A stretch of DNA of 64,000 nucleotides from Rhizophagus irregularis (taxonomy: Eukaryota), in assembly GCF_026210795.1 (NCBI RefSeq), contig NC_089432.1:3968001-4032000 (forward strand), read 5' to 3'. This document shows, in pieces, positions 11,101-57,225 of this stretch. The position numbers and the translations under genes are program-made. Below the pieces are notes generated by a model. That model ran no database searches and was not told the DNA's origin. It saw only the letters and a program-made list of their open reading frames with translations. The stretch's first letter is position 1. The number at the start of each line of letters is the position of its first letter.

Positions 11101-11674
11101 TTTTTAAATATATATCATAGATATTTTATTATTTACAAGCAATTATAAATTATCGAACAGCCATCTGCACAAATTGTCCCTTGTTAAAAAATGCAGCACG
11201 AAGAGCATTTGCTTCAATTTGGTCTGCACGTCATCATCCTATTTATCGTTTGATAGAAATTGCAGATGAAGAACAATTGATGCGACTCCATCCAACTATA
11301 TATACGTGATCTTGTGGAAAAAAATAGTGTAATATCACGATCAGGTTTAATTAGCCAACATCAGGGATTAGATGCAATTTTAGAAGAGGTAAACAAAGCC
11401 TTAAAAACACTTATACCACCTGTTTCACAGCAGCGTCACTGGGAAATTGCTGCACGAAACTGCAAAAAGTTTCTCCAGGTATATCTATATATGCTATAAA
11501 TAAAATGCTAAAAATCTGTCAATAAAATAAAAAACTACTTTTGATACCTATATTTGTATTTTATGATTTATGCATTATTTATATTTTATATAATAAATGG
11601 TTGATTTTTTTTTAATTTTTCAACTACAAAAGTTACGTAACAATTTCTTTAAAGTAATTGGATATAATGATGTT
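8136..11674 (+). pseudogene. 5' part of a disrupted multi-exon gene (possibly transposase-derived, DUF6589-like); insertion target of the giant element
   Basis: ORF pieces 8136-8879, 9270-9725, 9870-10103 separated by in-frame stops; VTCDGVPY and LIPEQLHEEMN motifs once the MITE is removed; last exon ..LRNNFFKVIGYNDV ends at the TSD. Confidence 0.6.
10104..10638. mobile_element. Fold-back MITE with CAC-type termini (CMC/CACTA-like)
   Basis: TIRs CACAGGTTGAAAAGTGAAAAATCAGGCA / TGCCTGATTTTTCACTTTTCGACCTGTG; almost the whole element is an inverted repeat; ATA TSD at 10101-10103 and 10639-10641; removal restores LVLI-PEQLHEEMN. Confidence 0.85.
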
Positions 11675-11723
11675 AGTGGGATACCACATGCAATATAAAT
11701 TATATTGCATGTGGTATCCCACT
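11675..11723. repeat. Left terminal 49-bp palindrome (hairpin)
   Basis: AGTGGGATACCACATGCAATATAA-A-TTATATTGCATGTGGTATCCCACT, perfect 24-bp arms. Confidence 0.95.
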
Positions 11724-11739
11724 TATCCTAGATTATAGT

Positions 11740-11928
11740 ATCACATGTAATCTAAATACCACATATAATCTAAATACCGCATATGATCTAATTAACACAT
11801 ATAATCTGAATACCTCATATGATCTAAATATCACATATAATCTGAATACCACATATGATCTAAATAATGTAATCTAATTACCACATATGATCTAAATGAT
11901 GTGGTCTAAATACTACATATAATCTAAC
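11740..11928 (+). repeat. Subterminal tandem array of ~18-bp units (consensus ACCACATATAATCTAAAT)
   Basis: About 10 imperfect copies read directly; more copies ~12019-12066; mirrored at ~56360-56690. Confidence 0.9.
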
Positions 11929-14385
11929 ATTTTATTATTTCTTATATCGCTTTTACATTCTAGCTATATCTTTAAGCCTTTCTTGATATTTGTATTTTTG
12001 TGCTAATATACTTTTTATTACCACAATATAATCTAATTACCACACACATATAATCTAAATACCACGCTATTCTTCTTGTTTCTAAGTCATTTATTTGTTA
12101 AATTATACAATGGAGTTCTTGACCTTCTGTAGTTATTTGGATACCTGGTTTATATCGAGTACTGTGCCTCCTGCACCTGATTGGGTGCTGGATTTTATAT
12201 TGGAGTACTTACCTTTGCGCCTATTTGGTTGCCTTTCTAGATGTTGAAAAAAAGTGACGGGTGGCGCAGTAAATTTGCATTTAATTTCGGCTGACACTAT
12301 GCTATAATTCCGGCTGATCTTTTGGGCATGTGATTTGAGGATCCAGCCTGGCGCCATGGAACTATCGTGGAACTGGCAGGGAACTGTCATGGAACTGGTG
12401 AAGAACTGGCAGGAAGCTAGAGTGGTTCTATTAATTCACCAGTTTCAGATCACTTATATTGCCAGCTTGGATGCCAAGTTCTTATGCCCAAAGATCTGGT
12501 CAAAATTGTGAAATAGTGTTGGCCGAAATTAAGCGAATCTATACTGCGCCTTACTGCGCCATAGTCACGTGATACTGTTCCGGTGACAGAACACCCTCAC
12601 ATAGTTACGGGCTAGTGACGGGGATGTTCTGGGAAAGTTTCTGGAACCCAATATATATGCATCTGTGCCACATATTTTTTGTATCCATATATTTCCGAAA
12701 TCTTCCTAACACTCTCGAGCTCCAGTCTGGTGGACAGTTGGTTAGTAGAGAATTGGAGGTACAATATGTATTATCTTGGCCTGACCCATTTGATTACCAA
12801 AAAGTGCGCCATCATGCAACCTAATTATTGTCAGTACATGTATGCCTATTTCATGTCCAAAGTTGAAGATGCGATATGTATTATTGTGGCTGGCCCATCT
12901 ATACCATACCCGAATACATATCTAGAAAGATGAAGGCTTCTGCCAATATTTATATAATAGATTACGCAGTTACCTTCACTTTTAGATGTATATCCACTTG
13001 CCTTTCTTTTTCGATTCTTTATCTAAGTTTGCTATCGCTTCTTTTTTTCGCGTATTTGTCTATCCTAGATGTCATATATGTCCGAGCACATACTAGTGTT
13101 AGGGTAGCCTTCTGCCAATATTTTATATAATGATTACGCAGAAGGCTACCCTATAAAGAATGTATTTATTTGTGTCTCCGAAGTGTCCAAGAGGGGCCAG
13201 CCAACTTCGTATCTCTTTTTGGTATACCTCTATATTACGCGGAGGCTATACCATATCTGAGTACATATCTAGGAAGATGGGGGCTTCTTCCAATATTTTA
13301 TATAATAATTCCGAAGTTATCCCATCTAAAAGTATATACCCGTTTCCCTTTTATTTACGATTTGCTTACTGGGTTGCTATACGCCTCTTTTTACATCCTA
13401 TTAACAATGCTAAGGTGAAGGCTTCTGCCAATTTTTATATAATAGATTACGCAGAAGCCTTCACTTTTAGATATATATCCGGTTGCCTTTCTTTTTCGAT
13501 TCGTTTAATAAGTTCACTATCGTTTCTTTTTGCATCCACCGAAAAAAATAAATTAAACATTTCCGAATTTTATAAAGTAATATAAACATTTTCGAACTAA
13601 CACCATGCATACACCAACTAGTTTCGACCAAACCGATCACTCTGGCCCTCTCGTTTACTTCAACGGCGCCAGTCCCGATGAATATTTAAGTGATTCAAGC
13701 AGTTGTACTGATAATAAATCCGACTTGGGGTCAGATGATTATAATGACAATGAGTCTAATTATGAGTCGAATAATGAAGAAGCTACCGGTACCTCAACCG
13801 ACATTACCACGACTCCATCATTTCAGTACTCTTTAAGGCAGGAAAAGTTTAATGATAAATTTTCTTCTAAGGATTTGCTAAATGCCATTCGGAGGATTTT
13901 CTCATCACCACCTAGAGATATGTCAGATGAAAAAGGCTCATTGGAAGATCTCCCAATCTATTCATTCCTCTTTCCGAATGAAAAAGGGTCTAGTTTATAT
14001 AACGCTTACGATCGGGGTGAAGTGGAAAATAAATTGGTTATCAAAATCGACCAAGATGGTGATCATGCCCCCAAATTTTCCGTTGCAGATGACATTTCAG
14101 AAGTATATGGTTTACCCGGGATTCATGAATGTATTAATAGACAAAAGCCTTTAAGAGCTGTGATTGATATCGATGCGTCGCAAAAAGATATGGAAACAGC
14201 TGATGTCAAGGGGCAAGAAGTGTTCATTCGAATCTGTTGCTCTTTCATAAGAGCTTTGTACCGAATTCTTGACTGTGGTTGGGAAGACATTCTCAAAGGG
14301 TTAATAGTTACTACATCATCAGATTCTAGCAAATGTAGTTATCATATCTTATATGCACCGGCTCTCCTTATCGATCACCAAGAGC

Positions 14386-17300
14386 TAAAGCTCCGCATGA
14401 GCCAGCTTGAGCCGAGCTAAGGTCTGGCTTGGGCTTGGCTCGAAAAAATGTACTGAGCCAAGCCGAGCCGAGCCACAAATTCTTATGGCTCAGCTCAATA
14501 TGAGCCGAGCTATAATAATTCTTAGCTCGAAACAAATGAGCTGAGCCGAGCTTCAATAAATTTTGGCTCGAGCCAAGCTGAGCTCGAGCTACTATTTGTT
14601 TATAATTTGTATTTATAATTGACATAATTATGTTATTTATGTAGAATATTTTTTATTTATTTTTTATTTATTTATTTATTCAATTTTTATTTATTTAATT
14701 TAAAATCTAATTTAATTAATAAATTATAATTACCGGCACACATTTTTTCAACATTTATTTGTTAATTTCACTTCCGTCTGACCCTTTCCGTTATTCAGAC
14801 TACTATTATGAGCAATTATCAAGTCTACTATTTTACTTTATCATTAAGTTTTACCCTCCAACCTTTCATACATAATTACCGCTTCAGAATGTCCAACAAG
14901 CAACCGAAACCTAGTTATCCCGGGTTCATCTAAAGAGTCCGGCAACCTAAAGAAAATAGTAGAAACGTTAGTACTTTTCTTCTATATATTAAAAAAAAAT
15001 TACTCCCCAATTCCCGCTAACATATACTTGCACACATTCCAAATCCGGACCTTCCAAATCTAAAAAAAAGAATCAAAATGTTAGTAACGTTTCGTTAAAT
15101 TATAAGAAAAAAATTATTTCGATTACCTTCAAACATTAGAAGCCGGTCCGTCCCTACAAAAAAAGAAAGGTAAAGAACGTTAATAACGTTCTTGTAGTTC
15201 TTGTATTGAAAAACCCTCCCTTTCCTCACATTACCTCAAGAAGCTGTGTGCCGAAAGATTCGTTCCTACTTCCTACAAAAAAGAAAAGAACAGAACGTTA
15301 GTTAACGTTCTTATATTAAAAGAATTATTAATATAATATCTCCCCCTGTAACTTACCATTTTATGGAATTCCAAGTCCAGGAAAAAAATAAAAATAAAAT
15401 AAAAAATTTAACGGTATAATAAGATTGTTTGAACGAAAAAAAAATTTTTTTAAAAAAAAAATAAAAATGAATAACGGTTTAAAATAAAGAAACCGTTTAA
15501 CGAAAAAGGAAAAAAAATAAACCCGTTTTTTTTTAATAATAAACCTAAAAAATATACAAAGCGCTACAAATTTAATGTATAAAGTTGAAGGAAGGAAAAA
15601 AAAATTAAGATTATCGATCGGTAAATCGGATCGATAAGTCACATGTAAAGATGTACCGTAATATTAATTTTGACTGTGAAACTGAAAAGTAACTGTGCTA
15701 AACTAATTTTGGTAGCTAAACTAATTTTAGCTAAGCCAATTTTATTAATTTTCCGTGTCTTAATTATTTAAAAGTAGTTATCGTCTGTATGGAAAAAAAA
15801 AATTCGAGTTGATAATTTCAGTTATCATCCATGCAAAATAATCCAACTTAAGTCATTCTTTTACGGGTTCTTTTTTGACGGCTTTCTCTTAAGATAAAAA
15901 GATTTATATATCCGAATAATGTCCAACCCTTCTTCACCTATTCCCGTTCCCACTCCTATTGTTGAACTTGAAGCGAATACTAATTCTTCTTCAAGCAGCA
16001 AAAGATCCCTTGTTTATCAATTTTTTACTTATAAGTCTCCAAAATATTATTGCAACTATTGTCCTAAGAGTTTTTCAAACAAATCAACTTCTACGTTATG
16101 GCGTCATGTAAATAAACACCACCCAAAAATTGTTGCTGAAACTCAAAAACAAGAGGAAAAAATCGGTGAAATGGATAAGTTCGTAATTTCTGATCAAAAA
16201 GAAAATGTAAGTTTAATATTTATTTTAATACCATATTAAAGATCCTTATTATTAATATATCAATATAATTATATCATTTTTTTAGTTTAGCCAAAAAGGA
16301 TATAGAAAAAGATTGATTCGTTGGGTAGTTAATAATGATCAACCGTTTAATGTGACCGAAAATAGGGAATTTCGGGACATGATGACATTTATTCGACCAG
16401 GTATGCACATTCCCTCTGCTGATACTATACGACGAGATTTAACTGAAAACTTTAAAACTTCAAAAGATGTATTTAGACAACAACTGCAGGTTAATAACTA
16501 ATGTTTATATGTAATGATTTTATATTATATGGGTATTAAATCAATCCAAATAAAAACAATAGGAAGCACCCGGTCGCCTATCTTTCACAGTGGATGCTTG
16601 GACCAGCAAGAATCAAATTCCATTTCTTGGGATAAGTGTTCACTGGATAAATGACAAATGGGAATTAAAATGTACTACATTGGATTTTTGTATTTTATCA
16701 GGATCCCATACTGGAGCTAATTTATCACAAAGATTTTTAGAAGTCCTTCAAGAGTTTGGTATAACAACAAAAGTAAATGTTTAATTGTTTATTTACAATT
16801 TATATTTTTTTTCATAATTAACTAATAATTGTTTATTCTTTATTGTATATAGATTTTAGCAATTGGATGTGATAATGCTTCCAACATGGACGTGATGCTA
16901 GAAAACATTTCGCAGTCTTTAAAATTACAAAATATAATATTTGATCCAAATAATCATCGCGTCCGATGCCTTGCACATGTTATAAATTTAGGCGCAAAAA
17001 AATTAATAGATCATCTTTATGTGACTAATAAAATATCATATGAAGATGAAAATACCTTTGAAGTATCCGAAGATAATGATGATAATTTGAAAGATGCTAT
17101 ATATAAGGTAATAAATATTATTGCAAAAATACCAATTTTATAATTGCTAATTGTTTAATTTATTAAATTTAAAGCTTCGCAAGGTTATAGTAAAAATTAG
17201 AGCATCTCCACAGCGCCGAGAAAAACTTAAGCAACAATGTATTGCTGCTAATATTAAACCACTTGAACTTATCCCGGATGTGTCAACGCGATGGAATTCG

Positions 17301-18880
17301 ACTGATGACATGATAACACGTGCATTGGAATTAAAACAAGTAATATTAGTTTTATTATTTAAATTTTTTTAAAAAATTATTAAATTTCTAATTAATAATT
17401 AATTATACAGCCTCTTCATAATACCGCATCAGCTGATAAAGATTTAAGAAAGTATATACTTTCAGAAGAGGAATGGAATTGTATTTTAGAAGTACATGAG
17501 ATATTGCAGGTTAGTTATTTATTGATTAATAATATACACGAAAAATAATAAAAAAAATATTTTCAAGAAATTAAATCTTTTTTTATCTTTTTATTTACAG
17601 TGTTTTAAAAAGAGTACTAATTTTAGCACTGGACAGCAATATCCAACGTTATCGTATAGTGTTCCTATATACAACTATTTGCTAGATAAGCTTGAAGACG
17701 AGTATGAAAAAAAGGAAAGTGAAAAAGGCGAAGAGAATGAAGTTGTAGTAGCATTAAATGAATCAATCGAAAAAATAAAACAATATTATGCATTTACAGG
17801 TGCATTAGTTTATACAGTAGCAACAGGCAAGTTTATCATTATCATTATGTCTAATTTTATGATATTTAAATATTAAATTTATTTCTTATAATTTATTACT
17901 AAATAGTGATGGATCCTCGCCTTAAACTTCAATATTATAGGGATAATAAATGGGAGGAATCCTTTATTCAAGAAGCCAAAAAACAAGTTGTTGAATTATG
18001 GAAGTCAACGTATAAAGTAAATAGTGCAGATAATGAAGAATCACATGATGATGATGATGAAATTTTCGGTCATATATTTAAGAAACGGAAATTAAATAAT
18101 GATGAATTAAGTATATACTTAGATGAAAAAATAATTCCCGGAAAAACAGATATTCTTGCATGGTGGAAGGTATATAAATAATATTATTTATTATATTATT
18201 ATTTTATATTATTAATGTTATTAAATTAATTTTTATAGGCGCACGAAGTGGAGTACCCGAATTTGTCTAAAATGGCGCGTGATTACTTATCTATTCCAGG
18301 TTAATATATATATATATATCAAAATAGTAAATTACCGATCAATAAACTATTATTAATTATTTTATTTATATAATTTATTATTTTTATAGCCACTAGTGCA
18401 CCTGTAGAGCGAATTTTCTCAGGTGGCACCGATTTAGTTGTTCAAAAACGTTGTAGTCTTAAAGATGAATCAATTCAAAAAGTAATGTGTCTTAAAGGAT
18501 GGTGGAAATCGGGTTTTGGTGGAATAACTATTGTAAATGATTAATATAAAAGTAAAATTATATCTATTGTTAGTTTGATTATTAAATGTTAAATTTTAAA
18601 TAATAAATAATAAAATAATAAAATAAACAATATTTTATATCAAATTTTAGTAATTTAAAATCGAGCCAGCTCGAGCTATTTAAGCCAAGCTTATTATTGG
18701 CTCGAGCTTTTTTGAACTGATTTATTACCGGCTTGAGCTTTTTGAGCTGAGCCTATTACCGGCTTGAGCTCTTTTCAAGCTGGCTCGTGAGCTACGAGCC
18801 AATTTAATTATGGCTCAGTTCGGCTCAGCTTGAAAAGCTTGAGCCAGCTCACAAGCCAGCTCGGCTCATGCGGAGCTTTA
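14386..18880 (+). mobile_element. hAT DNA transposon nested in the primase-helicase gene
   Basis: TIRs TAAAGCTCCGCATGAGCC / GGCTCATGCGGAGCTTTA; 8-bp TSD CCAAGAGC (14378-14385, 18881-18888); subterminal GAGCC/GAGCT repeats. Confidence 0.95.
15919..18544 (+). CDS. Multi-exon hAT transposase with BED zinc finger
   Basis: CNYC..LWRHVNKHH, DAWTS, CDNASN, RCLAHVINL, DVSTRWNST, DPRLK, WWK..YPNLSKMARDYLSIP, ATSAPVERIFS; GT-AG introns between ORF pieces. Confidence 0.9.
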
Positions 18881-21800
18881 CCAAGAGCTTAAATCATTCA
18901 CCGAATTAGTATATACCTTAACTGGGGAAAAATTTGGCAAGTTTATTGATCAGAATCTATCTGGTCATAATTTTAACCTTCGCCTTATTGGTTCGGCAAA
19001 AAAAGGTCACGTGAAACGAATTCTTCAGTTTTCACTAGATAATGGGTGGAATGAACTCGATCACGTTAGAGTCCAACCACCTACTAACTTAGGCCTCGAA
19101 GTAAGACCCCGGCTACTTAGTGAAGAAAAAAATAACAACCCACTAAGGATAATTGTAAGTCAGGATGTATTACAAAAATGCGCGAACTTAGTTTTGCAAA
19201 AGCATTTTAACTATCTTAGGAATTGGACTATCGAAGAAAAGGATTCACAATACTTCGTATATTTTAACCGGAAAGCTTCACTAGAATGTCCACTATGTAA
19301 ACATATACATGACAAGGATCAGCGGTGGTTCGGACATGTATCTGCTAGTGGTACATTTATTGTGAAATGTTTTCGGCAAAATAGTGATGAACCTGGGGAA
19401 GTTTTTGAATGCGACCCATCTATTGCGGAAAAAATTCAGCAAAAAAATAAAAATATATCTTCGGCGCCTAGCAAGATAAAAGGCTTAGGTTTTCCTAAAG
19501 CCTTCTTAAAATTCCCATCTTGGGTTAAGTATAATGAGCCCCTTTCAGCGACAGAAATATATGACGAGAGATATGTAAGACCATTACCGGATGAAGGTGA
19601 TATCTATGTAGGATCGCCTTGGGAGACGGGAAAAACATATGTTCTCGAGCATCTTACTATATCTGACGATGTGAATTTGCTAGTATTATCTACGCGCCAC
19701 TCTTACTCGAATGCCGTCACTACAAGACTCAATCTCAAATCATATTGCGATATCGATAGTAATATAAATCTACCTGATCATAAGAGGGTAGTATGTCAGA
19801 TAGAAAGTTTACACCGTATTACTAATAATTGCAAATGTAATAAAAAATGTAAATGTTCTCCAAGCCAATATGATTTATGGCTTGATGAAATAGTATCTAT
19901 AATTGCTCAGGCACAAGGTCATTTGGCGGGTCAATCAATAGAGAAACTATATAAATTAATCCAAGAGGCTAGGCGTATTATCGTCATGGATAATGATCTT
20001 ACTGATCTAAATATCGAATGGATTAAGGCCCTTCGCAAGGATAAACTATTCTCAGTTATCCACAATACTTATCAACCACAGGAAGGGAAAACATTCCGCC
20101 TAGCCTCTAATAAAGAAACTGTGTTAGCCGAACTTTGGGATTGGGCTAGGAGAATATCTTCACTACCTTCTGATAAACGAACAAGTGCATCACTCATCTG
20201 TCATCTCAGAAAGGATGTGCAAGGGATCGTTCGTGCTCTCAAGACCGATTTTCCGGAATTGAGGATCAAAGAATATCATGGTAAATCTGATCCAGAAGAA
20301 AAGGCTAACGACTTCAGTAACGTAGAAGAATCATGGAGCAATGTTGATCTAGGTGCGTATACAAGTACTTTAAAAATAGGAGTATCTTGCACTAATCCCA
20401 AGTTCGAACGGGCGTTCTGCATCTTTAACAGTTATATAGAAACGAACGCTGGAACGAATCAGATGCTATTCCACATGCGGTGCATTAAAGATTATATATG
20501 CCATATCGAACAAAGATCTTCTAACGTCCCCATTACAGAAGATGGGTTATTTCGATGGTTGTTGAATGCTAAACGTGAATGCCTCCCCCGAGAACTCCAG
20601 AATAGAGGAATATTCCCAGATGTAGATTCTATTATCCGGAATAAGGACGTACCAACTGTTCGATTATGGGTGGCATTCATGTTGGAAAAATTCCGTTCCC
20701 GAAGATTATTTGGTTGGAGGATGGTTGATTTTCTCCGAAATGCAGGTATGGTAATTTCTATCATAGAACTTATGCCTAAACCTAAAGATAATACGATATC
20801 ATTATCCCAGACAGTAAGGGTGAGTTCATCTATCATTAAAGCAGAAGAAATCTCAGATATATCAAATGCCCGTATTCTTGATCATGAGATAGCTGAGGTT
20901 TTGGAAAATAAGCCGAAGAAGACTTTAGAGGAAATGCAATCTTTAGACCGGCATCATATTGTAGAATGTTATGAGATTCCGCCTGAATCATTGACCGAAG
21001 AATTCATATCGAAGTATGGGAATTATAATCATATGAAATGGTTTAGAGCTTATAGACAGTTACGGGACGCTGGCACTGATAATGAAACGGCTGTTGAGGC
21101 TATTACCCGTAAAGATTACAGAGAGGATAGACTCGCAACCGTGACCCGAGCTGAGAGACATAGTATCTGCTTGGAGTTGCTAAGAAATTGTACACCCGCT
21201 AAAGACGTTGACGATAGAGCACGATATAAAGCTGATGATGTTAGAACGCGCATGAACTCTCCTAAATCGATATTATATCTCCAGGATTTAGTACCCAAAA
21301 TGGCTCGAGTATTTGATAATACAGATGCATCGCGCAGAGCTAAAAAATCGGGATTGAAAACAGATCGGGCAAAACTTGGTTTATTAAATGCATCACTTTA
21401 CGCAACTTATGGATTAAAATTTAAGGCTATAGATAAGAATTGTAGACATTACCACCTAGTAGGTTCATTTGATAGTAAAGATGCTCCTAGATTACCTTCA
21501 TATCAAACGGGCGAAGAAATTTATTGGGTAAATGGTGAAGATACTCGGTATGGGTATAGTAAACTCCCACCCGATGAATTGATATTAGATAATTTTACTA
21601 GCTCTAGCAAAGTGGATAATACGCAAAATACAGAAGATATTCAGGACTTATTTGATATATGCTAATACCATTCGATTACGTATCAGGTAAGTGAAGGCTT
21701 CTGCCATTTTTATATAATATAATTCCGCAGAAGCCTTCATTTTTCGGCATATATTATTAAAAAAATATCTCTAACTTTGCGTCACTCTGGCCAGGATATA

Positions 21801-22969: not shown

Positions 22970-23294
22970 ATATTACTATAACATTTTGGTCTTAGATCAT
23001 TCATAGCCTTGGAATGGGGGTTCCATGACTATGTATTTTTTTTCGCATATCCTATCTACCCGCAATTTTCAAATGTTTGCAGAGAAAACCCGGCCATAGT
23101 GGGTGGATTCACGTAGTGAACACTCAGCATAAGCTATATTATTATTTTTCGCTCCTCCAATCCTCCGATAGCTTTCACCGACCATGAGGTAGTGAAATGG
23201 GGGAATATTTTTTTCGAATTGAACTTTATCCCACTTAATATAATCTGAATACCACAGATTATCTAACTACTACATATAATCTACATACCACATA

Positions 23295-24443
23295 ATGTCT
23301 GCAATTACAACCAAGTTCGTTACAGACCACCAGCTTACCAATGAGATGAGTATCGAAGAGCTCAGTCAGTATGCGCCAGAAATGCGTGACCTCTTGGGAG
23401 ACGATAGAGAGAAAAGGCGCCAGGCCCGTAATCGTCTTCAAAAAGGGTATAAATTTAGCAAAGAACAGGCATTTGCATTGATTCCTGACCAGAGAAATGG
23501 GCGGTATATAAGTCAAGTACCGATCCTAGAGGAATTAGGATTAGCGCCTTCAGAAGCTGAAGTTAATATAAGCCTAGTATCTGAGAATACCCCAGAAGGG
23601 GAGACTATTAAAGAAATAGCTCAGCGCATTGTTCGGGATAATCTTAGTGAAAGAAATGTAAAAACGATATCAAGAACCTTAGTCGAAACGGCCTCTGATC
23701 CTATCATTGCCTCATCACGACTCTCCAGGCTTCAAAGAGAATTGCGGAAGCTTAACACCTCGGAGGCGATAATCTCTGCCACCAAGATTTCGGAGATAAC
23801 CAGAGCATCTAATAAAATCCAACAGAAGCGTACTGAGCAACGTAAAAATGAAGGACTCCATTATCCAGACCACTTCTCGTTAGAATCGGTTAAGGAACGG
23901 CTAGATTTATATGTTGTGTCTAACACACCCGATAAACAGGCCCTAGCTGATGTAATGATTATGCTCTGTATCCGCCCTACTGAAATTAAAAACTTGCGCA
24001 TAGCAAATGGGGGCGTAACGGGATACGCAAAAAACCGAGGCCAACAGGATGTTCCTCGGGTGTTCAGATCGCTGGAAAAAAATGAGGAGCGAGCAAGGCA
24101 ATTGCTTACATGGATTCAGGAAGCAATTTCTTCCAGACAGTTAAGAGATCCAGGAAAACCTGGATCGACATACTTAAGTTCGTTTCTGAAAAAAGAAGAA
24201 TATATTCCTAAACCTTATGAGCCATTACTCCCTAGTTCCTTGCGCAAATTAGGGGCGGTATTTGCTTTGGTAGTCCATGGGCCTAAAAATCCGTCAAAAG
24301 CCAATACTTATGCCAGTGAAGCCCTTCGACATTCGCCGAATAACCATGCTTCTCCATCTGATAGATATACTATAGTTAATTTCAGAAGGAGGGGGCAACC
24401 TTATGATCAAGCAAAACCATTCTGGATTTCTGATGAAAACTAA
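23295..24443 (+). CDS. Tyrosine recombinase / telomere resolvase (protelomerase)-like protein
   Basis: Candidate catalytic residues in YR order: MLCIRPTEI (R), GYAKNRG (K), PSSLRKLGAVFA (R), EALRH (H), SDRY (Y); intact 382-aa ORF. Confidence 0.65.
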   Translation: MSAITTKFVTDHQLTNEMSIEELSQYAPEMRDLLGDDREKRRQARNRLQKGYKFSKEQAFALIPDQRNGRYISQVPILEELGLAPSEAEVNISLVSENTPEGETIKEIAQRIVRDNLSERNVKTISRTLVETASDPIIASSRLSRLQRELRKLNTSEAIISATKISEITRASNKIQQKRTEQRKNEGLHYPDHFSLESVKERLDLYVVSNTPDKQALADVMIMLCIRPTEIKNLRIANGGVTGYAKNRGQQDVPRVFRSLEKNEERARQLLTWIQEAISSRQLRDPGKPGSTYLSSFLKKEEYIPKPYEPLLPSSLRKLGAVFALVVHGPKNPSKANTYASEALRHSPNNHASPSDRYTIVNFRRRGQPYDQAKPFWISDEN

Positions 24444-25474: not shown

Positions 25475-25975
25475 ATGATAGAGGTTTATTTTTTATATTT
25501 GGATATTATATATGCCATAATAAAAATGGTATTCGTGAATTGTGTAGTCGAAGAAAATATTCCTATTGAGGCATCAATTGATACGAGCGCCAATGTAAAT
25601 TGCATTAGCCAAAAACATATTGGTGAATTAGGAATTACATATCACAGTGAAAGCAATCGTATTGAGACTCCGGATGCATCCTATTCTACATTAGGAAAGG
25701 TTGATCTGCATATCGGCTTTAATGATAGCAAGAAACATAAAAGCACACCCGTTGAATTCATAGTTCTTGGACTGGAGTGGTCGGGACCTGATTTAATTTT
25801 AGGAGGACCTTGGTTTCAAGAAAATGGTGCAACTTTGGATATATGCAACTCAAATCTATTATTTGACAATAATTTTGCGATCCCATTCAAAGAAGTAGAC
25901 TATATTTCGACATTATCTGATAGTCAAATCCGAGCTATGACGGATTTTCCCAGTCCAACCTATAGTCCGGAGTGA
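25475..25975 (+). CDS. Retropepsin-like aspartyl protease (second copy; likely start at MVFVN)
   Basis: ASIDTSANVNCIS and DLILGGPWF motifs. Confidence 0.75.
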   Translation: MIEVYFLYLDIIYAIIKMVFVNCVVEENIPIEASIDTSANVNCISQKHIGELGITYHSESNRIETPDASYSTLGKVDLHIGFNDSKKHKSTPVEFIVLGLEWSGPDLILGGPWFQENGATLDICNSNLLFDNNFAIPFKEVDYISTLSDSQIRAMTDFPSPTYSPE

Positions 25976-26037: not shown

Positions 26038-26463
26038 ATGCATACAGACAATTTACTTGATCTTCTTCCGCCGGAGATAATATCATTTATTCTAAAGTAT
26101 CTTCCAGAACAGGAACTAAAGAATTCTCGCAGTATAAATAATATATGGGAAAGAGAGGCGAATCTTGAATGGCACAAAAGGATGGAATTTTTATTTGGGA
26201 GAATAGTTCAAGGCAATTATACAGTAAAGGAATATTATTCGAAACTGAAAGAGTGTAATTTAAGCAAAGACTATCCAGAATGGCTTTTTAAAAATCTATT
26301 CATCAGAGGATTATCACCTGAGAATAAATTTAAAGTTCGTTTGGATGGGCTATTACTACTTTCGTTAGATGAGATAGTGGATGGACAATTAGTACTTTCG
26401 TTAGATGAGATAGTGAAAAGGCTTAGTTCGGAGCAGGCCGAAGGTGCTTTGCATGATCATTAA
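26038..26463 (+). CDS. F-box protein fused to a Gag capsid-like (MHR-region) segment
   Basis: [23 protein letters not shown] (F-box) followed by [30 protein letters not shown], which aligns with the element's Gag. Confidence 0.75.
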
Positions 26464-26510
26464 GCTTAGAGAATTTATTTTTTCGATTAAAGATACAGCA
26501 TATATTATTC

Positions 26511-27593
26511 ATGGCATATTCAAGTATTTTTAATATACCAGAACTATTAGAGCAGGTTCTATATTTCCTAGCAGTAAATAAGACATTGTATCCTGCCCTA
26601 TTTGTTTGCCGGCTTTGGTACAGATGCGGTGGTCCTATTTTATGGAGACGCATTGAGCTAAAGGGGAACGAAGTAGACGATAGATCTCGATTGGAAAGAT
26701 TTTTTAAAATAGTACGTGGAGGAGGAAGACCAGTTTATAGCTCAAAACTAACTCATCTCAAAATATCGGACTATCATTCACTTTCAAATAAAAAAATCAA
26801 AGGCATTATGCATACTTTCCAAAATATAATACATTTAGATTTTGGAGGGAGTATGAAGCCTGAGTCTATTGGTAAAGTTCTAAAGCTAATAGCAGAATCA
26901 TACCCGAATTTGAAGTATCTTAATATATCCGCTTTATGCAGTGGATTTGGAAATGATAAAGGCCTATGTGCAATCGCGAATTCATGTTATAAAATAGAAT
27001 GTCTAAATATTTCTAGACGTACAGAGTTTTCTGAAACATCAATTTGTAATGTTATTCGTTCTTGCCCAAGGCTCCAGCAACTCGACCTTAGCTTTTGTCA
27101 TATTACCGATATAACTATCAAAGAAATTACTGGTTCATGTGTTAATTTAAAGTACCTCAATTTGGAAGGGTGTAATAATATTAGCAAAGAAGCCGTAGAT
27201 CAGCTCATTTCACTTAATCCAAATATTCATGTCGAGAATTTTGTGCCGATTCGGGTACCTCCCCAAAATAATGGAGCTTTAGATGTAATCCATGGACTTG
27301 CAAGGCAACTGGGAATACCACATGATGAGCCAAGAGATGTTGCATCCTTAAATAATTTTATCAATGACGAATTATCAAGGAGATTGAGTGAACGCTGTAT
27401 TCTAGCTAGAACATCGCTCCGGAGTGGTGGTCGGTTATATAACACCCGGCATAGTGTTAATAATAATCAGAATTCGGTCATATCTCAGATACACCGGCAA
27501 CCTAACAGACGATCGCCAAGGATTAATTTCGGTAGAATACTAGCCGATCAATTAGAATGGTGGTACTCTACCGATCTAACTAATCTGGAGTAG
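26511..27593 (+). CDS. F-box/LRR (RNI-like) protein carrying a Gag-derived segment
   Basis: [17 protein letters not shown]; LRRs ([27 protein letters not shown]); [33 protein letters not shown]. Confidence 0.8.
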
Positions 27594-27715
27594 TGATCGT
27601 CAGTTCGGAAGAATTTTTTTTGCTGAGCCACAATGCATGTACTCATGTACGACAGAAACAAGCGATGATTAACCTATTTTTCCGATTGAAAATATTTAAT
27701 CAATCTACTAGCAAA

Positions 27716-28411: not shown

Positions 28412-28987
28412 TCACCAGCTCGGAAGAATTTGCTGAGCCTCAATACATGTACTCATGTGCGACAAAAATAGGCGATCACTAGACAGGGTTCGTGTAACAT
28501 TAATTTTGCATATACATTCGAAAAGAAAACATATTAACCTTTATTCTTTATTTTTCCCAAACAAACATGAGAAAAATATGAAAGAGCGTCTAGTTGCAAC
28601 ACAGGACCAGCTCTAAAAGTAAATATTAACGTCAAAAGCATATGTTATGAAGGGCTGAGGGACTCACATTTTCGAGATCGCCAGGCGTAAGACCAACTAT
28701 GCGTCTCTCCGGTAGATCTCCATGTGAAAAGGTTTGAAAATTCTGTTTACATGTGCTTTCATAGAACTCTTGGCATCAGACGACAATACTAATTACGCCT
28801 CATACCTCCTTAACTTCGGCTTGGCGCTCTTTTTCCCAGCAAGATATAAAGCATGTAGGGGTATGTGGAAGTTCAGCCAACTTTCCGCAAAAATTTACCT
28901 GTAAGTGCTTCGCTAAGGTATGTATATACCAGAAGTTATGTATGTGTGGGAATGAAAATCTCACTATGGGCTTTGTATTTAGGAAAG

Positions 28988-29347: not shown

Positions 29348-29591
29348 TAATTATTTTTATATCATGTAATGCGATCCATTCGCAATTTTTATGTATTGTA
29401 GGCCGGGTTCCGGCAACATTTTATTTCATAAATAAAGTATTATTATATGAGTAAGCGGGTCACGTGTATGTCTGTACTACATAAAAACCTATATTAACAC
29501 TTACGTTCCCACCAGAAATACAACTCTATTTTTTCTCCGAACGTAACACTATTTTTATCCGAGCCAATTATCCCTATAAAAACGTAACGCT

Positions 29592-39621: not shown

Positions 39622-41122
<1,501 letters not shown>

Positions 41123-41146: not shown

Positions 41147-42817
<1,671 letters not shown>

Positions 42818-48652: not shown

Positions 48653-51600
48653 TTATCTTTTTTTGTCATCCTGTAACTTTGATAACGTTCGATAGCGTGT
48701 GATTTCTAGACCAACCACTTTGTACCATGTGTTTCGGAAACCTGCTAGTAGCTTACACTCATCCAAATAATATGATGTTAAATATTGTTCTAAGGACATT
48801 GCTCGCTTCTTAGTAACTAATTTATACATACTTTCTCTATACCCTATATCAACCTCGGAAATTTCTTTAAGCAATGATGAAAGTTTTAAGCGGATAGATT
48901 CTTCTTGCTTATCTAGCACATTGAGGAAGGATTGGTAATAATCATTGTTAGTCAGGTGTTCTCCCTTGTCGGCATAAGTAGTATCAAATAATTTTTTCGC
49001 GTAAATGCGTGCCCCTTCCCATAAATGAGAAATGATGGTTTTATCTTTTTTCGGACCATCACGTAGGTTTTTGATATACCCCCTAATCCATTTTTCAGCC
49101 GATTTCTGCGCTAAGGTATCTCTTATTTTTGATACCTCATCCCCATCCATTTCGTCTTCTTCCTCTTCATCTTCGTCCAGGTCGTCTTCATCCACTCTAC
49201 TGTCATCCGCTTTATTTTCACCCACTTTATTACCATCTTTTAACTTTTTTAAGGCTTCCAGCACAATTTCAGATGATGGCTGGTGTCTATCATCATAGTT
49301 TATAAATCGCGCACAGAGCCCGACAACACTTTTCAGATAATAGTTAATATCGATCTTTTTATCAAGATGTCTTGCCACTTCTGGGTACTCCATTTTGTCA
49401 CCTACCTTCTGTGATGAATCATTCTCAACTACAACATATTCAAACCGCTCGCCTGGCTCTGGGATTTCATAAAGATAAGCCTTGGGTGTTAGACCCTTTT
49501 TTATGAGCCGTTTGGCGTCCGCTTCTTCACGGGTATGTCTATCCCGCATTCGTGAAATGAAGCGCTGTACACTCTTGTTATTTTTATCGGGCCTCCACAC
49601 AGCAGTTTTTATTATTTCATTAAGATTTGTCTGCGAAATATCCTTTACAGTCTCTTTGAGCACGTCCTCTACAACCTGATGCAAGGTACGTGTATTGTTT
49701 ACCCTCGTAGACTCTTCCATAATACGTTTTCCTATTTTGCGGAAAATGCCAGACTGACCCCGTTTTACAGTCTCAATTCCCCGAATGAAAAGCTCTTTAT
49801 TAAAATTTGGCTCACTCTCATGTGGAATGCTGTAGTATTTTTTCTTTCCAGTAAATACTACCGGAAATAAAACTTCCTCATATGCCATTTTAAGATACGA
49901 CGATCCATTATCTTTTTTAAAAAAGTCATTAACTTCGTCGCGGAGTTTCTCCATCTCTTCCATAGAGATTTTTACCATTCTAGACCAATATTCTTCTTTC
50001 GAGATCCCACCATTACCGCTGTCATATGCCTCATCGCATTCTTGAAAGTACCTTTCTGGAGGAACTAGATACAATGAATCAGTATCACCATATTTTATCT
50101 GAAAATCCCTACTTTTAACGAAATTTGCGACAAGTTTGATATTTCTCTGTCCAGCTGATGTGATGCCCCCAGCCAGTGCTCGCAAGAAGAAGGGAGATTT
50201 ACTATCCCCAGCGGTGCCATAAAATGTATTCATGTACACCTTAAGAGCATTTTGTTTCGCATCTAAGCAAGAATAAACAAAACAAACTGAATCATATTCT
50301 GTCATGAATTCATGCTTTTCTTTATTAATAAAATGGTATAGATTTTTGTTAAGGCTGGCACGTTTTTTCTCCCCCGCTTTTGCTAAAATGTGCTCAATTG
50401 CTTCTGGTAGTGACAAATCTTTACCCATTAAACCTATTACCAGTTCCATATCTTCCTTTTTTTCTTTCACAGGGGCAAGGCGTTCCTTTATCTCATTCCG
50501 TTTGATAGATAAATATTCCAATATAGTAACGTAGAGACCCTTTTCTTCAGGAGTGTTATTATGCCTTATAGACCATGCGAGACAATCCTGATTATTGAAT
50601 TTAAAACTAATTTCGTGGAGTTTTTTACCACTTTGTTCAGCACGCTCTTAAGATAAAATGATTTTATCAGGCGAGAGGTTGTATGTCATGATAAGGCTTG
50701 GATATAAAGATCTGAAGTCTAAGCCAGTTACAGGACGTTTATTTTCGAGCCCCTTTATTGGTGGGAAGACGTAGGCACCCGGGAATGATTCTGTTTCCGT
50801 TCGTTCTGAAATTGTACTGGTTAAAATCCCTTCCCGCCATGCACTAGCACTTAAAAGATTGCTCACTTTCATTCCTATTGCAAAATAATGCGCATCAAAT
50901 AACGATATAAATGCTATGCTCGCAACCTCCCTGTACTCATTAATTACATTGTGCTTAATCATTAACCGCTGGCAACTAAGAGCGTCAATGATACAATATT
51001 CGGCTATTTCGCGCATTTGTTCAGCCGTTGTGGCATCAGCCTCTTTTAGTGCATTTCTGTAATACTTGAACATGCGGTTGAAAGGCATATCCAATTTACT
51101 TTCGAGCCCACATTCGTTTAGGTAGAATGCTAAACTACTCTTTTCGGCCTTAGAATAAAATTTCATAAAGCAAGGTCGGACATCGATAGCTACGCATCCT
51201 GGGATTTTGAGATGCTTTGAATGAAATGGTATATCATTAACCTTTATTGCGTTATATTGGTATTGCCATTTTGTAATTTTTTCGAGGCTTGAATACTTTA
51301 ATGACATTTGATTGAACACCCATTCGAGAACCCCTAATTTTTTCGCCTTCTCCACAATAAATCTCCAATCATATTGTGAATCATTAAAACCTATGTGTAT
51401 ATCTGGAGCTAAAAGCTTCCAACATAGTGCAAAAGCCTTTAGTAAATTAGTCTGGGATCCACATACGATTGTAATCCATCGCGGATCTGGCGCTGTTTCA
51501 ATATCGACAAGACAGATTTGTTTTAACGGTTCGGGATCATCTTTCCAATGAACTGTCATACAAATCATAAATACGTTAGATTCATCGCTCTGCGCAGTAG

Positions 51601-52410
51601 GGAATTTACCTAAACCAAGCGAACTATATGTCTCTATATCCCATGTGAGAACAAGAGTTCGATCCCGTGAAAGGGTCGAGGAGAATAATGGATTATTATA
51701 ATCGTCCTCACTTGTTGGATTGTAATTATTCACAGAAACTTGGAAGAGATAAGTACCCCTTGAATATATTCGTGGAAATAATTACTTAACGTTGCCCAAC
51801 TTGAAAGAGGTAATCTTTTTTCACGGGCTACTTTGCGGTAATAATATATTGGGGTTAGATCATCAGAAGCTGTACAGATACTGACTTCACGAACTGCCTT
51901 TAACATATTATACCGGTCAAATTGATTCCAAGTAATAACACGTATATATGATTTTTTCTCTGTATAATATCCTTGAAGTGGGAAAGCACTAATATTCTCG
52001 ATCCCAAATTTTGATGTACCTTTGAGAGTATTGGATAATATATTTACTAATCTGGTCTTAAACGTAGATAGGGACATCTCTTCAGGTACTTCGACATCAA
52101 AGAAAAGCTTAATGCCTGTAATTTTTACGACTGCTTTTTGTCCATTAATCAAAGTACCAGTAATACGCAAAATATAGGAGGAGACACCATTTACATATTC
52201 GGAGGTATCATCACTAACTTCAGTAGGCATGAAATGTATGGGTTGCTTGTCGGATAGGCTTTGTTGGAGTATAGCAGTCATCCCATTATCATATTCTGCT
52301 ACAATCTCATTACGTGATAGAACACCGGCTAAGGGGCCAGTGTCATCGTAGCGGAGGGCTGGGGCGGTTCCGGAGCGATCGGTTTGGTCGAAACTAGTTG
52401 GTGTATGCAT
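48653..52410 (-). pseudogene. polB: Family B DNA polymerase, RNA-primed type, asfarvirus/NCLDV-like (~1250 aa; one frameshift, one nonsense)
   Basis: ExoI WDIETYS, ExoII GFNDSQYDW, ExoIII YCIIDA, GLDFRSLYPSLIMTYNLSPD, KQNALKVYMNTFYG, YGDTDSL, KKKYY; frameshift in the G-run ~51757-51760; in-frame TAA at 50650-50648. Confidence 0.93.
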
Positions 52411-52879
52411 GGTGTTAGTTCGAAAATGTTTATATTACTTTATAAAATTCGGAAATGTTTAATTTATTTTTTTCGGTGGATGCAAAAAGAAATGATAGTG
52501 AACTTATTAAATGAATCGAAAAAGAAAGGCAACCGGATATATATCTAAAAGTGAAGGCTTCTGCGTAATCTATTATATAAAAATTGGCAGAAGCCTTCAC
52601 CTTAGCATTGTTAATAGGATGTAAAAAGAGGCGTATAGCAACCCAGTAAGCAAATCGTAAATAAAAGGGAAACGGGTATATACTTTTAGATGGGGGTAAC
52701 TTCGGAATTATTATATAAAATATTGGAAGAAGCCCCCATCTTCCTAGATATGTACTCAGATATGGTATAGCCTCCACGTAATATAGAGGTATACCAAAAA
52801 GAGATACGAAGTTGGCTGGCCCCTCTTGGACACTTCGGAGACACAAATAAATACATTCTTTATAGGGTAGCCTTCTGCG

Positions 52880-55283
52880 TAGGGTTGGTAAAATAACCGT
52901 TAGTTATGAATTTGGTTAATTAACCGGTTAATTAACGGTTAGTTAACGGTTAATTAACCCATAAATAACCTGTATATATAATTTTAAGGAAGTTAAAATA
53001 AATTTATAATTTATTAAATATTATAAAATTTTAATATATTTTATTTATTCTTCATCATCTAAATTAATAACATTTGCTTCAAATCCAAATATACTATCAT
53101 TATCAGAACTATTATTATTATCATCTTCTTTATTTTCATTATCAGAACTATTATTACTATCTTCTTCATTTTCATTAAAATTACTAATCTGTTTCTTTTT
53201 TTGTATTTTTACAAGTCTATTACACATTCGAAGATTTCCATAAATATAAACTAATTTTTTAACACGTTCATTTTTCAATCTATTTCGAATTTTATTATGA
53301 ATAAAACCAAAAGTAGAAAAATTTCTTTCTGCAGCTGCAGAAGATGTAGGAATTGAGAGAATTTTAATAGCCAGTTGTTGAAGTTTACTAGTTGGCCATG
53401 ATTGCCACCATAAAGATGAATTAAGAATATTAGCAGATTTCCAAATAATTTCATTATCATAAGGTGAATTTTTATTACGAAAATTTACCAATTCAGCAAA
53501 TAATTCTACTGCTTCTTCCTGATTAAATCTTTTATTTACAAATGTTGTAAATTCTACATAACCAATAGATTCAACTTCATCATTTTTACTTTTTTCCAAA
53601 AATTGTGGATCTAACATATAAGCTGTTATCATAATAGGATGATAAGTATATTCCCATCGCTTTGCAATAAGTTCTTGAAGTTTATCAGAAAAATTACAAT
53701 CTATTTGATTAATTTGATTCATTACTTCTTTGAAATATGAATAAACATTTGAAAGAATTGAAATATCTGATTCAAATAACTTTAATGCTGAAACCATTGG
53801 TTCCATAATTTTTGTTATTATATCTAAATCTTCCCAAAACTCATCTGATAAAATATGAGCTCTTAAAGTTAAATCCATATTTTGACGAATTCTTATATCC
53901 ATTAAAGCCTGTTCAAGTGCTGTTCTTGAATTTTGAAGTGATTGAAAACAAGCAAGATGTATTCCCCATCTTGTAAGTGCTGGTAAAACCAATGCAATTT
54001 CTTTAGAATAATTTTCTTTTTGAATACGTTTCAATTTAGCTGTTGCCTGTACATGTGCCTTAAAATAATTGACCAACTTTTTTGCATTTTCAACAACAGA
54101 TTTAATTTGATCAATCTTTAAAATATCACTAATTAAAAGATTCATTACATGAGAATTACATCCTAAACAAACAATACTTGGATAACTATCTTCAATAATT
54201 CGCCAAGCTGCTTTCATTACACTAGCTGTATCTGTAATAACTGCTAAAAATTTATTAATACCAACAATTTCCATTTGTTTAATAATTTCATCTGCAACCC
54301 ATTTAGCTGTATGAGATTCTTCACCAGAATAAATAGCATCAAAGAATAATGGTTTTGGAGTACAAATAACAAAATTTTGAACTGATTCTCGATTAATATT
54401 AGACCAACCATCTGAAACCATTGTAAGAGATTTAGCTTGTAAAATTTGTTCATTACATTCAGCTTTAACTTCATCAAAAACATCATCAAGTAATTCATCA
54501 GCAAGTTTTCTTCGATTAGGTAATTTGAATGCTGGACGTAATTGTTGAAAAAACTGAATAACATAATTATTTTCAAGAAAAGAAAAAGGAACTCCAGCAG
54601 CAAATAATGCTTGAGCTAGTAAAATTTCAAGAGTATCTTGTTCTTCTTCACTCATACGATCAACAAAATTCTCAATTGTTGTATTTTTTAAATGCTTTTT
54701 TGATGTTTTTACTGTAGGAATAAAAGTAGAAGTAGTAGCATCAGAAGTTTCTAATAGTTCAGGAATTTGTTGTTTCTTTGTTTTTGCACTTTCTGGAGCT
54801 CTAGGACAACTATCATTAAGATGAACTTGCATTCTTTTAGCTGTACCTTGTTCAAAAACTTTAGAACAATAATTACAACGTACAGAAGGATGTGTTTTTT
54901 TTTTTTTTCTTAGACCTACTACTTTCTTCATTACTTTCTGCTTCAGTAATTATTGTCCAATGTTTCCAAACAGTTCCCTTTTTTTTTACCATGATAATGA
55001 ACAATAAATTTGCAAAAAAAAGTGTTTTTTTAAAAAAAATTTATCTTAAAAAAAAGATCATGCAATATGTAGATCATAGATTTAATCAATATTTATATTA
55101 ATTAATATTTAATTGTGTAACAAAATAATGGATTATCATTTAATCACATGATTTAAATTCTGCATTTTGATTGGCTAATTATAAATAACGGTTAATTAAC
55201 CATTTTAAATCAATCATAACTAACAAAATTAACGGTTAATTAACCATGGTTAATTAACCGTGGTTAATTAACCCCCATCCCTA
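52880..55283 (-). mobile_element. hAT DNA transposon nested in the right TIR
   Basis: Ends TAGGGTTGG.. / ..CCATCCCTA; 8-bp TSD CTTCTGCG (52872-52879, 55284-55291); GGTTAATTAACC subterminal palindromes; empty site present in the left TIR at ~13137-13144. Confidence 0.95.
53045..54992 (-). CDS. Intronless hAT transposase (BED finger, DUF659-like core, dimerisation domain); frameshift in an A14 run near the 5' end
   Basis: MVKKKGTVWKHW.. then VRCNYC..MQVHL, SDGWSN, ITDTASVM, CNSHVMNL, TRW, LDP, PTSSAAAERNFS. Confidence 0.9.
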
Positions 55284-56703
55284 CTTCTGCGTAATCATTA
55301 TATAAAATATTGGCAGAAGGCTACCCTAACACTAGTATGTGCTCGGGCATATATGACATCTAGGATAGACAAATACGCGAAAAAAAGAAGCGATAGCAAA
55401 CTTAGATGGAGAATCGAAAAAGAAAGGCAAGTGGATATACATCTAAAAGTGAAGGTAACTGCGTAATCTATTATATAAATATTGGCAGAAGCCTTCATCT
55501 TTCTAGATATGTACTCGGGTATGGTATAGATGGGCCAGCCACAATAATACATATCGCATCTTCAACTTCGGACATGAAATAGGCATACATGTACTGACAA
55601 TAATTAGGTTGCATGATGGCGCACTTTTTGGTAATCAAATGGGTCAGGCCAAGATAATACATATTGTACCTCCAATTCTCTACTAACCAACTGTCCACCA
55701 GACTGGAGCTCGAGAGTGTTAGGAAGATTTCGGAAATATATGGATACAAAAAATATGTGGCACAGATGCATATATATTGGGTTCCAGAAACTTTCCCAGA
55801 ACATCCCCGTCACTAGCCCGTAACTATGTGAGGGTGTTCTGTCACCGGAACAGTATCACGTGACTATGGCGCAGTAAGGCGCAGTATAGATTCGCTTAAT
55901 TTCGGCCAACACTATTCCACAATTTTGACCAGATCTTTGGGCATGTAACTTGGCATCCAAGCTGGCAATATAAGTGATCTGAAACTGGTGAATTAATAGA
56001 ACCACTCTAGCTTCCTGCCAGTTCCTCACCAGTTCCATGACAGTTCCCTGCCAGTTCCACGATAGTTCCATGGCGCCAGGCTGGATCCTCAAATCACATG
56101 CCCAAAAGATCAGCCGGAATTATAGCATAGTGTCAGCCGAAATTAAATGCAAATTTACTGCGCCACCCGTCACTTTTTTTCAACATCTAGAAAGGCAACC
56201 AAATAGGCGCAAAGGTAAGTACTCCAATATAGAATCCAGCACCCAATCAGGCGCAGGAGGCACAGTACTCGATATAAACCAGGTATCCAAATAACTACAG
56301 AAGGTCAAGAACTCCATTGTATAATTTAACAAATAAATGACTTAGAAACAAGAAGAATAGCGTGGTATTTAGATTATATGTGTGTGGTAATTAGATTATA
56401 TTGTGGTAATAAAAAGTATATTAGCACAAAAATACGAATATCAAGAAAGGCTTAAAGATATAGCTAGAATGTAAAAGCGATATAAGAAATAATAAAATGT
56501 TAGATTATATGTAGTATTTAGACCACATCATTTAGATCATATGTGGTAATTAGATTACATTATTTAGATCATATGTGGTATTCAGATTATATGTGATATT
56601 TAGATCATATGAGGTATTCAGATTATATGTGTTAATTAGATCATATGCGGTATTTAGATTATATGTGGTATTTAGATTACATGTGATACTATAATCTAGG
56701 ATA

Positions 56704-56752
56704 AGTGGGATACCACATGCAATATAATTTATATTGCATGTGGTATCCCACT
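56704..56752. repeat. Right terminal 49-bp palindrome (hairpin)
   Basis: AGTGGGATACCACATGCAATATAA-T-TTATATTGCATGTGGTATCCCACT. Confidence 0.95.
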
Positions 56753-57225
56753 ATGTTCAAGCAAATTCTCCAAGAACTCATTCTGAATCAATTACAGAAT
56801 GTCAAAGATTTCAGGTTTATTTAAGAAAGCTTAATTTTCTTAATCCAATGGAGACAAAAACAGATTTTAAAAGTCTAGGTGGAGAGAATAAATTGAGTGA
56901 CCAGTTGAAAAATTTTAGTAATTTGGTAAAAAAGGCACGACAAGAATATATTATTGAAGTGTTTTACAAAAAAAGTTCAGTTCTCTCATTTTGGCCTATT
57001 CCAATAACTCAACAAGAAGCAATGATGCAGGCAGATGAATCCAACATAACATGAATAGAGATTTTGCGTAAAGTAGAATCTCTTTTAGAACAAATGAGTG
57101 AAAGTATTCGCAAGCAGTACCATGGAATAGGATCTAAAAAGAAAAGTGAATTGCTAACCATATTACAAGAGGTACGAAATTTGCAGAGTGTAGATAATGA
57201 ATTAAATGATATAGATGTAGTTTAG
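56753..57225 (+). pseudogene. 3' remainder of the gene interrupted at 11674
   Basis: QANSPRTHSESITECQRF.. continues in frame from ..GYNDV once the element and one TSD are removed; in-frame TGA at 57052. Confidence 0.7.

Follow-up and report, generated by a model that had tools for sequence, protein, structure and literature searches.

The locus analysed here, a 64,000-nt stretch of the Rhizophagus irregularis genome (contig NC_089432.1 of assembly GCF_026210795.1; hereafter the window), raises the question of what short repeats from the ends of a mobile element are doing directly in front of a gene in its interior. The original prediction, made from the letters of the DNA, had read the stretch before the ATG at 23295 as a miniature copy of the element terminus, and had proposed that the recombinase-like product of this gene binds the end repeats and autoregulates its own promoter. 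Taken as a whole, this interpretation is partly supported by our analysis. The best overall explanation, to which we give a probability of about 0.6 on the basis of a structure model and sequence comparisons, is that the gene encodes a telomere resolvase, which would form hairpin ends at the palindromes that terminate the element and likely represses its own gene through half-sites of those same palindromes.

The upstream units are half-sites of the terminal palindrome

The element spans 45 kb (11675-56752), starts with AG and ends with CT, an end motif also seen in Polintons, and is flanked by a 5-bp duplication; the T at 11674 is also present in other flanks, so that the duplication is equally readable as 3 bp plus a terminal T/A. 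Its features are collected in Table 1. The host flank carries a separate 535-bp fold-back element with 11-bp repeats (10104-10638).

Table 1. Features of the element and its flanks, in window coordinates.
Feature	Position	Strand	Basis or location
Left target-site duplication, ATGTT	11670..11674	+	sequence
Left terminal palindrome, 49 bp (24-bp arms, 1-nt centre at 11699); predicted telomere-resolution site	11675..11723	.	
Left terminal inverted repeat (TIR), ~1.97 kb, 99-100% identical to the right one; contains the start of the primase-like ORF	11675..13645	+	
Left subterminal array of 18-bp units (main run 11738-11927, outliers 12029 and 12051)	11738..12068	+	
Primase-like ORF (inferred, no Pfam hit) and UL9-like helicase (Herpes_ori_bp)	13605..21665	+	
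T-tract-CGAATTGAA box, conserved across all gene clades at -69 to -86; likely promoter element	23208..23223	+	
TATCCCACTTA, inner edge of the palindrome arm plus 2 nt	23227..23237	+	
Three tandem 18-bp units (half-site register 23249, 23267, 23285), the last overlapping the ATG; likely operator	23238..23302	+	
382-aa protein with predicted protelomerase (telomere resolvase) fold; R227, K246, R317, H346, Y358	23295..24443	+	
A32-like packaging ATPase (Pox_A32, E 1e-6), as in Polintons	40340..41098	-	
rve integrase (E 1e-9), as in Polintons, fused to a C-terminal zinc finger and endonuclease-like domain	41147..42748	-	
Family B DNA polymerase (PolB), primer-dependent type (PF00136/PF03104), in three ORF pieces	48653..52410	-	
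Right TIR, broken by a hAT element (~52882-55283)	52370..56752	-	
Mirror (right) subterminal array	56359-56689		within the right TIR
Right terminal palindrome, centre oriented as in the left one	56704..56752	.	
Right target-site duplication, ATGTT	56753..56757	+	sequence

Within the window, the 11-mer TATCCCACTTA occurs at 11715-11725, at 23227-23237 and, on the minus strand, at 56702-56712, and nowhere else; seen alone, it is improbable to no more than a modest degree, since 200 shuffles gave 11 hits. It is followed by three units at 18-bp spacing (23241, 23259 and 23277), which score 22.4, 15.3 and 23.0 bits with a matrix trained only on ten units of the left TIR, and the run ends at the ATG. 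In the interior of the element (12100-56330) these are the only three sites above 12 bits (shuffle mean 0.67, maximum 3), and none of 100 dinucleotide shuffles produced a tandem triple above 8 bits. The observation from which the prediction started is thus confirmed: the 11-mer is identical to the inner edge of the palindrome, three units precede the gene, and no other strong copies of the unit are found internally, the 18-mer not being common in the window.

When the units are read such that they end at the symmetry axis, 15 of the 18 inner bases of each palindrome arm agree with the array majority; in other words, each arm contains one copy of the unit. Across the 64 kb, 24 sites match the array unit at 15 or more of 18 positions, namely the 4 palindrome arms, 18 array units, and 23249 and 23267, while the third upstream unit, which overlaps the ATG, matches at 13. 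The unit is therefore a half-site of the terminal palindrome, a link that is new here: as the arms themselves are units, the units are tandem half-sites. At the element end, two units in inverted orientation lead into direct repeats; at the gene start, there are direct repeats only. Calling the internal copy a miniature terminus was for this reason an overstatement; the half-site units and the inner-edge 11-mer are indeed present at 23227-23294, but the palindrome is absent, and so is the partial inverted unit found after the arm at the real ends, which makes the internal copy a run of half-sites.

The 18-bp units are not the only repeats of the TIRs. A second family, with inverted 12-bp arms flanking an AT-rich spacer, is found at 12928, 13100, 13275 and 13413 (mirrored in the right TIR), and the same layout recurs with other arms in a distant locus (L031, 1-250). 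We take this layout to resemble a herpes oriS-type origin; alternatively, it resembles a TATA promoter, and the element encodes a UL9-like origin-binding helicase. Internal copies lie at 21689 and 21816, just past the helicase stop, so that TIR-like DNA within the element is not unique to the 23227 region. The TIRs also span the first codons of both the primase-like ORF (13605, +) and PolB (52410, -), which therefore share a starting peptide and promoter, as in linear invertron plasmids.

The distribution of the units bears on which protein binds them. Subterminal repeat arrays are usually transposase sites, as in many DDE transposons, and AG..CT ends with a target duplication mean that the integrase must engage the ends. 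On this view, the protein on the units would be the rve integrase or the UL9-like helicase, and it would control the resolvase gene in trans while the resolvase acts at the palindrome only. We consider this unlikely, since the integrase and helicase genes have no unit in front of them in the scan of the 64-kb window, since the unit, being the inner 18 bp of an arm, extends up to the symmetry axis, a position expected for a bound resolvase and not for an integrase, and since the second repeat family is a better candidate for the helicase.

The gene at 23295 encodes a predicted telomere resolvase

The reading of the units as half-sites of a resolvase depends on the nature of the 23295 protein, which has no match in Pfam, PHROG or PDB sequence searches. 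Comparison with nine phage protelomerases using hhalign was not significant (probability 0.1-1.8%, E 0.44 and 0.028), and a sequence match to the resolvase family profile is thus lacking. The weak profile alignment nevertheless places R227, K246, R317, H346 and Y358 on TelK R275, K300, R383, H416 and Y425, so that the complete R-K-R-H-Y set falls in register with TelK. In a 16-row alignment that includes distant homologues (~35% identity), R227, K246 and R317 are invariant and H346 is nearly so; over 103 rows, the five residues are retained in 78, 82, 88, 91 and 90, respectively. The position of TelK K380 is occupied by Ser314 in the window, and by Ser in 77 of the 103 rows.

An AlphaFold2 model of residues 95-382 (pLDDT 90.1, pTM 0.84) was searched against the PDB with Foldseek, and all six hits with E<0.001 were TelA (E 3.4e-4 to 5.6e-4, TM 0.56-0.63); Cre followed from E 5.9e-3 with TM 0.40 or less, TelK ranked 11 and a ResT domain 18. 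The single hit below 0.001 in a viral structure library, and the best viral match, was the telomere resolvase of EhV-86. As judged by Foldseek on a predicted model only, the fold is therefore nearer to TelA, TelK and ResT than to site-specific recombinases, and the protein passes a structural but not a profile test for resolvases. That the gene is linked to end processing, as had been suggested, is now much better supported, through both this protelomerase-like predicted fold and the identity of the unit with a palindrome half-site.

Cre, Xer and lambda Int are also among the Foldseek matches, and the palindrome folds on one strand into a stable hairpin. One could therefore suppose that the gene encodes an ordinary tyrosine recombinase or an enzyme like topoisomerase IB, for instance one that circularises the element or resolves dimers, and that the palindromes are self-priming fold-back ends. 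In our judgement this has only a slim chance of being correct: the full-length fit to TelA is far better than that to the recombinases (TM 0.56-0.63 against 0.43 or less), the best viral match is a resolvase, the HxxR histidine of integrases is missing at 314, and the target duplication indicates that a DDE integrase carries out the insertion.

The named homologues among the best 120 of 354 matches all come from Glomeromycota. Six further homologues (P0199, P0204, P0233, P0248, P0259 and P0262), which are rich in Ala and Arg and ~35% identical, come from other metagenome sources and keep the catalytic residues; going by these sequences, the resolvase family appears to extend past Glomeromycota. 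Many homologues in alignments A1 and A2 have Arg replaced by Cys or His at catalytic positions, a pattern that looks like CpG decay in silenced copies.

The architecture upstream of the gene is conserved

A metagenome scan identified 105 relatives, of which 80 were kept and 48 reach the 5' end of the gene. Six of these loci were dropped before counting, either because fewer than 60 nt lay upstream (L012, L014, L061, L079) or because the start was disrupted (L056, L077); L056 lacks both the box and the units. A unit above 12 bits lies within 70 nt of the ATG in 27 of the 42 loci that were counted, at about -55, -36 and -18, whereas the remaining 87,284 bases, searched on both strands, gave 6 such hits. 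The sites are thus conserved at the promoter or start of the gene itself, as expected of an autoregulatory operator, and their placement is not peculiar to the window. A TTTCGAATTGAA-type box at -69 to -86 matches the pattern in 38 of the 42 loci, and the 11-mer is frequently TTTTCCCACTTA or more degenerate in homologues. Among the 20 clade-A loci with enough sequence, identity to the window is 88% over -85..-1, 82% over the first 180 coding bases and 63% over -200..-100.

The other 15 loci, which have no window-type units, belong to separate gene clades, mostly with 18-19-bp tandem units of their own at this position. They were divided by eye into four groups on the basis of their upstream sequence, and a tree built from the coding DNA recovers each of these groups as a clade (support 0.98-1.0; 0.54 for clade A). 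Self-similarity at 18-19 nt was significant (p<0.05) in 11 of 13 upstream stretches tested, the exceptions being L002 and L073. Considering that kin share labels in such a comparison, we read this pattern as conserved architecture with a changing unit sequence rather than as co-evolution; the joint match between the units of the ends and those of the operator was established for the window.

Could the stretch simply be a relic? The protelomerase genes of N15, phiKO2 and HAP-1 adjoin their target sites (in N15, the distance from telN to telRL is 164 bp), and the TIR-type repeats at 21689 and 21816 are likewise inside the element. A gene that formerly lay beside the end could thus have retained end sequences, which would now be a plain promoter or 5' untranslated region read by host or element transcription factors without any feedback. 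This strikes us as improbable: between clades, the units change in sequence but keep their number, spacing and position, which better fits a site that tracks a changing protein than a frozen relic or host-factor site, and their position is 3' of the conserved box, with an overlap into the ATG. An operator remains our preferred reading; through the units, the 23295 product would likely lower its own transcription.

Palindrome variants in public runs

For a view of the palindrome in relatives, assembled contigs from six public runs were aligned to the left end. The odd-centre form of the window is also present in X2, X11, X13, X15 and X16. One contig each from X11 and X16 combines two insertions at mirror positions, a C after 11686 and a G after 11710, and six contigs (two from X11, three from X16 and one from X15) lack one centre base, which yields an even centre. 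Contigs from X14, X15 and X16 stop 15 nt past an even centre, ATATAA|TTATAT, with different but self-complementary arms (two checked); this is the pattern that a perfect palindrome leaves in a 31-mer graph. One X11 contig joins a longer-arm variant to an array with a 19-bp period. Relatives thus keep the palindrome through mirror-symmetric changes.

Not all of these data favour an active hairpin cycle. Given an odd centre, a simple cycle of resolution and reopening should yield two centre orientations; the odd-centre contigs cross the site without a break and show one orientation, and both ends of the window likewise share one, which counts against such a cycle and fits copying without flipping, as in the reading with an ordinary recombinase and self-priming ends. 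No strand-changing joint at the centre is listed among the contigs. As contigs drop rare forms, we regard these points as weak evidence against the cycle. A depth-3 X11 contig over 11672-11723 shows the palindrome alone between two non-TIR flanks, possibly an excision footprint or an amplification chimera.

Gene content and relation to known elements

Gene order is the same in a locus that is merely 50% identical (L031, L074). The window copy is recent but looks defective. Its primase-helicase is split by an insertion from ~14420 to ~18900 that carries a BED-finger ORF, the split part being a single ORF in L031, and PolB is interrupted by a stop (50648-50650) and a frame change near 51730. An intact-looking hAT transposase (628 aa) lies within the right TIR (52882-55283) with duplicated flanking bases. 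The best solved structures for PolB are viral and cellular primer-dependent polymerases, including three viral-type chains (E ~1e-93) that we take to be the African swine fever virus polymerase; hits are to PF00136/PF03104, and none to a protein-primed family. The endonuclease-like C-terminal domain of the integrase has PHROG hits at E 1e-14, and the zinc finger and endonuclease-like fusion (41147-41700, -) is retained in a distant clade (L074, 9831-10340). This domain is a candidate for a hairpin-opening activity. Pfam, which is insensitive to divergent capsids, gave no hit to a capsid or maturation protease in 34 ORFs, in 13 ORFs or in 59 of 72 stop-to-stop frames, the other 13 frames being covered by the search of the 34 ORFs. 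Between integrase and PolB, coiled-coil/gag-like ORFs and an aspartyl protease lie on the plus strand (42867-46208); a second aspartyl protease (25475-25975) also follows the resolvase in L031. Host-type cargo occupies 26038-30892 (an F-box, an F-box-LRR and two ORFs with a Crinkler N-terminal domain), and L031 has other cargo, a RING finger, at the cargo position.

The element resembles Polintons/Mavericks in its rve integrase, A32 ATPase, long TIRs and 5-bp duplication, which lies within the Polinton range of 5-8 bp (PMC10748475); its TIR of ~1.97 kb exceeds the quoted 100-1500 bp. It differs in size (45 kb versus 13-25 kb), in a PolB that is not protein-primed, in having a primase-helicase and no capsid or protease hit, and in its 49-bp terminal palindromes and resolvase-fold gene with half-sites of its own. 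We therefore conclude that it integrates like a Polinton, but do not file it as a canonical one, since protein-primed PolB, a defining feature (PMC10748475), is missing. A Glomus (Rhizophagus) Polinton without a detectable capsid has been described (PMC7805220, PMC11296320, 10.64898/2026.06.19.733378), as have recent Maverick activity (10.1101/2021.03.30.436303) and Polinton-related A32 genes from fragmented fungal assemblies, where the text searched has no mention of a protelomerase or hairpin (10.64898/2026.06.19.733378). Action of a recombinase on the ends was suggested for an insect Polinton-like virus (PMC11296320), and the recombinase of PMC13465315 is a different, Crypton-type one.

Telomere resolvases convert a replicated palindromic telomere into two hairpins (PMC9111995). 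The systems of N15, phiKO2, PY54, Agrobacterium (TelA) and Borrelia (ResT) share with the element the resolvase fold, which is predicted here, the catalytic register and a palindrome of ~50 bp (the target being 56 bp in N15 and 50 bp in phiKO2). The palindrome of the element, its presumed target, is 49 bp long with an odd centre in the window, while several relatives have an even centre. Unlike the element, the N15/phiKO2-type systems are bacterial and not integrated, and have one internal telRL beside the gene; N15 and phiKO2 have an even CGCGCG core of 6 bp, against the odd centre of the window palindrome, and no tandem half-site arrays between site and gene. Endogenous phaeovirus elements of Ectocarpus are likewise viral, eukaryotic and integrated; they encode a telomere resolvase and have an internal telRL, and their palindromic site was proposed to produce covalently closed ends (PMC13236599). 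A resolvase is also present in EhV-86. These elements are, however, giant viruses that integrate at CC sites via a circle by means of a separate tyrosine recombinase (PMC13236599), whereas in our element it is the integrated ends that constitute the resolution-like sites, and the insertion shows the marks of a DDE enzyme.

Rhizophagus irregularis also carries Asfarviridae-like polB genes, with 15-33 copies per genome at strain-variable positions, which have been read as traces of giant-virus infection (PMC10640383, PMC5294986). By analogy with the giant-virus-type PolB found here, these copies are probably elements of this kind; the main text of PMC10640383 does not mention polinton, maverick, terminal inverted or integrase. 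Among the papers listed by the literature searches, none linked a resolvase to these elements; the searches did not extend to the original descriptions of 2006/2007, Repbase entries or supplements, where palindromes may be mentioned.

Proposed mechanism

Based on these findings, we propose the following cycle. A resolvase dimer would act at the inverted pair of half-sites to give a linear form with covalently closed ends, the step in which we place most trust. It is also reasonably likely that PolB and the primase-helicase would copy this closed linear form, and that the same resolvase would resolve the head-to-head junctions of the ends, such that end replication is solved without a terminal protein. 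A primer-dependent polymerase, in an element with no terminal-protein polymerase, calls for another answer to end replication, which a resolvase and terminal palindromes could supply. At somewhat less than even odds, the integrase, perhaps with its fused nuclease domain, would open each hairpin ~24 nt from the tip and insert the ends; if the opening is off-centre and the 3' end is inserted, both integrated ends would retain a full palindrome, as is seen.

Half-sites in direct repeat would be bound but not resolved. We lean towards a model in which the subterminal arrays load the enzyme, while the three units at the gene form an operator that would keep a chromosome-cutting enzyme scarce. Lying past the conserved box and running up to and into the start codon, these units cover what is likely the 5' untranslated region, and feedback is plausible considering that the targets of the enzyme lie in the host chromosome. 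There is no direct precedent for the operator in N15 or phiKO2, which have no units between telRL and gene, and none for such an operator among the papers listed by the literature searches.

Taken together, these steps would describe a new kind of self-replicating eukaryotic transposon, with complete telomere-resolution sites as its integrated ends, a proposal that we advance tentatively and regard as somewhat less likely than not in its full extent: its own protelomerase would excise it from the chromosome as a hairpin-ended linear replicon, a giant-virus polymerase would copy it, and a nuclease-fused integrase of retroviral type would open the hairpins off-centre and re-insert the element, regenerating the palindromes, with resolvase, end units and operator changing together between clades as orthogonal enzyme-site pairs.

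If true, the many Asfarviridae-like polB copies in mycorrhizal fungi would belong to one active, cargo-carrying family of mobile elements, rather than reflect repeated giant-virus infections. The bacterial solution to end replication, hairpin telomeres, would be joined to Polinton-type integration, which would bear on the relationship between hairpin-ended giant viruses and Polintons. Finally, the family would represent compact eukaryotic protelomerases with clade-specific sites that are predicted from sequence and directly testable in vitro.
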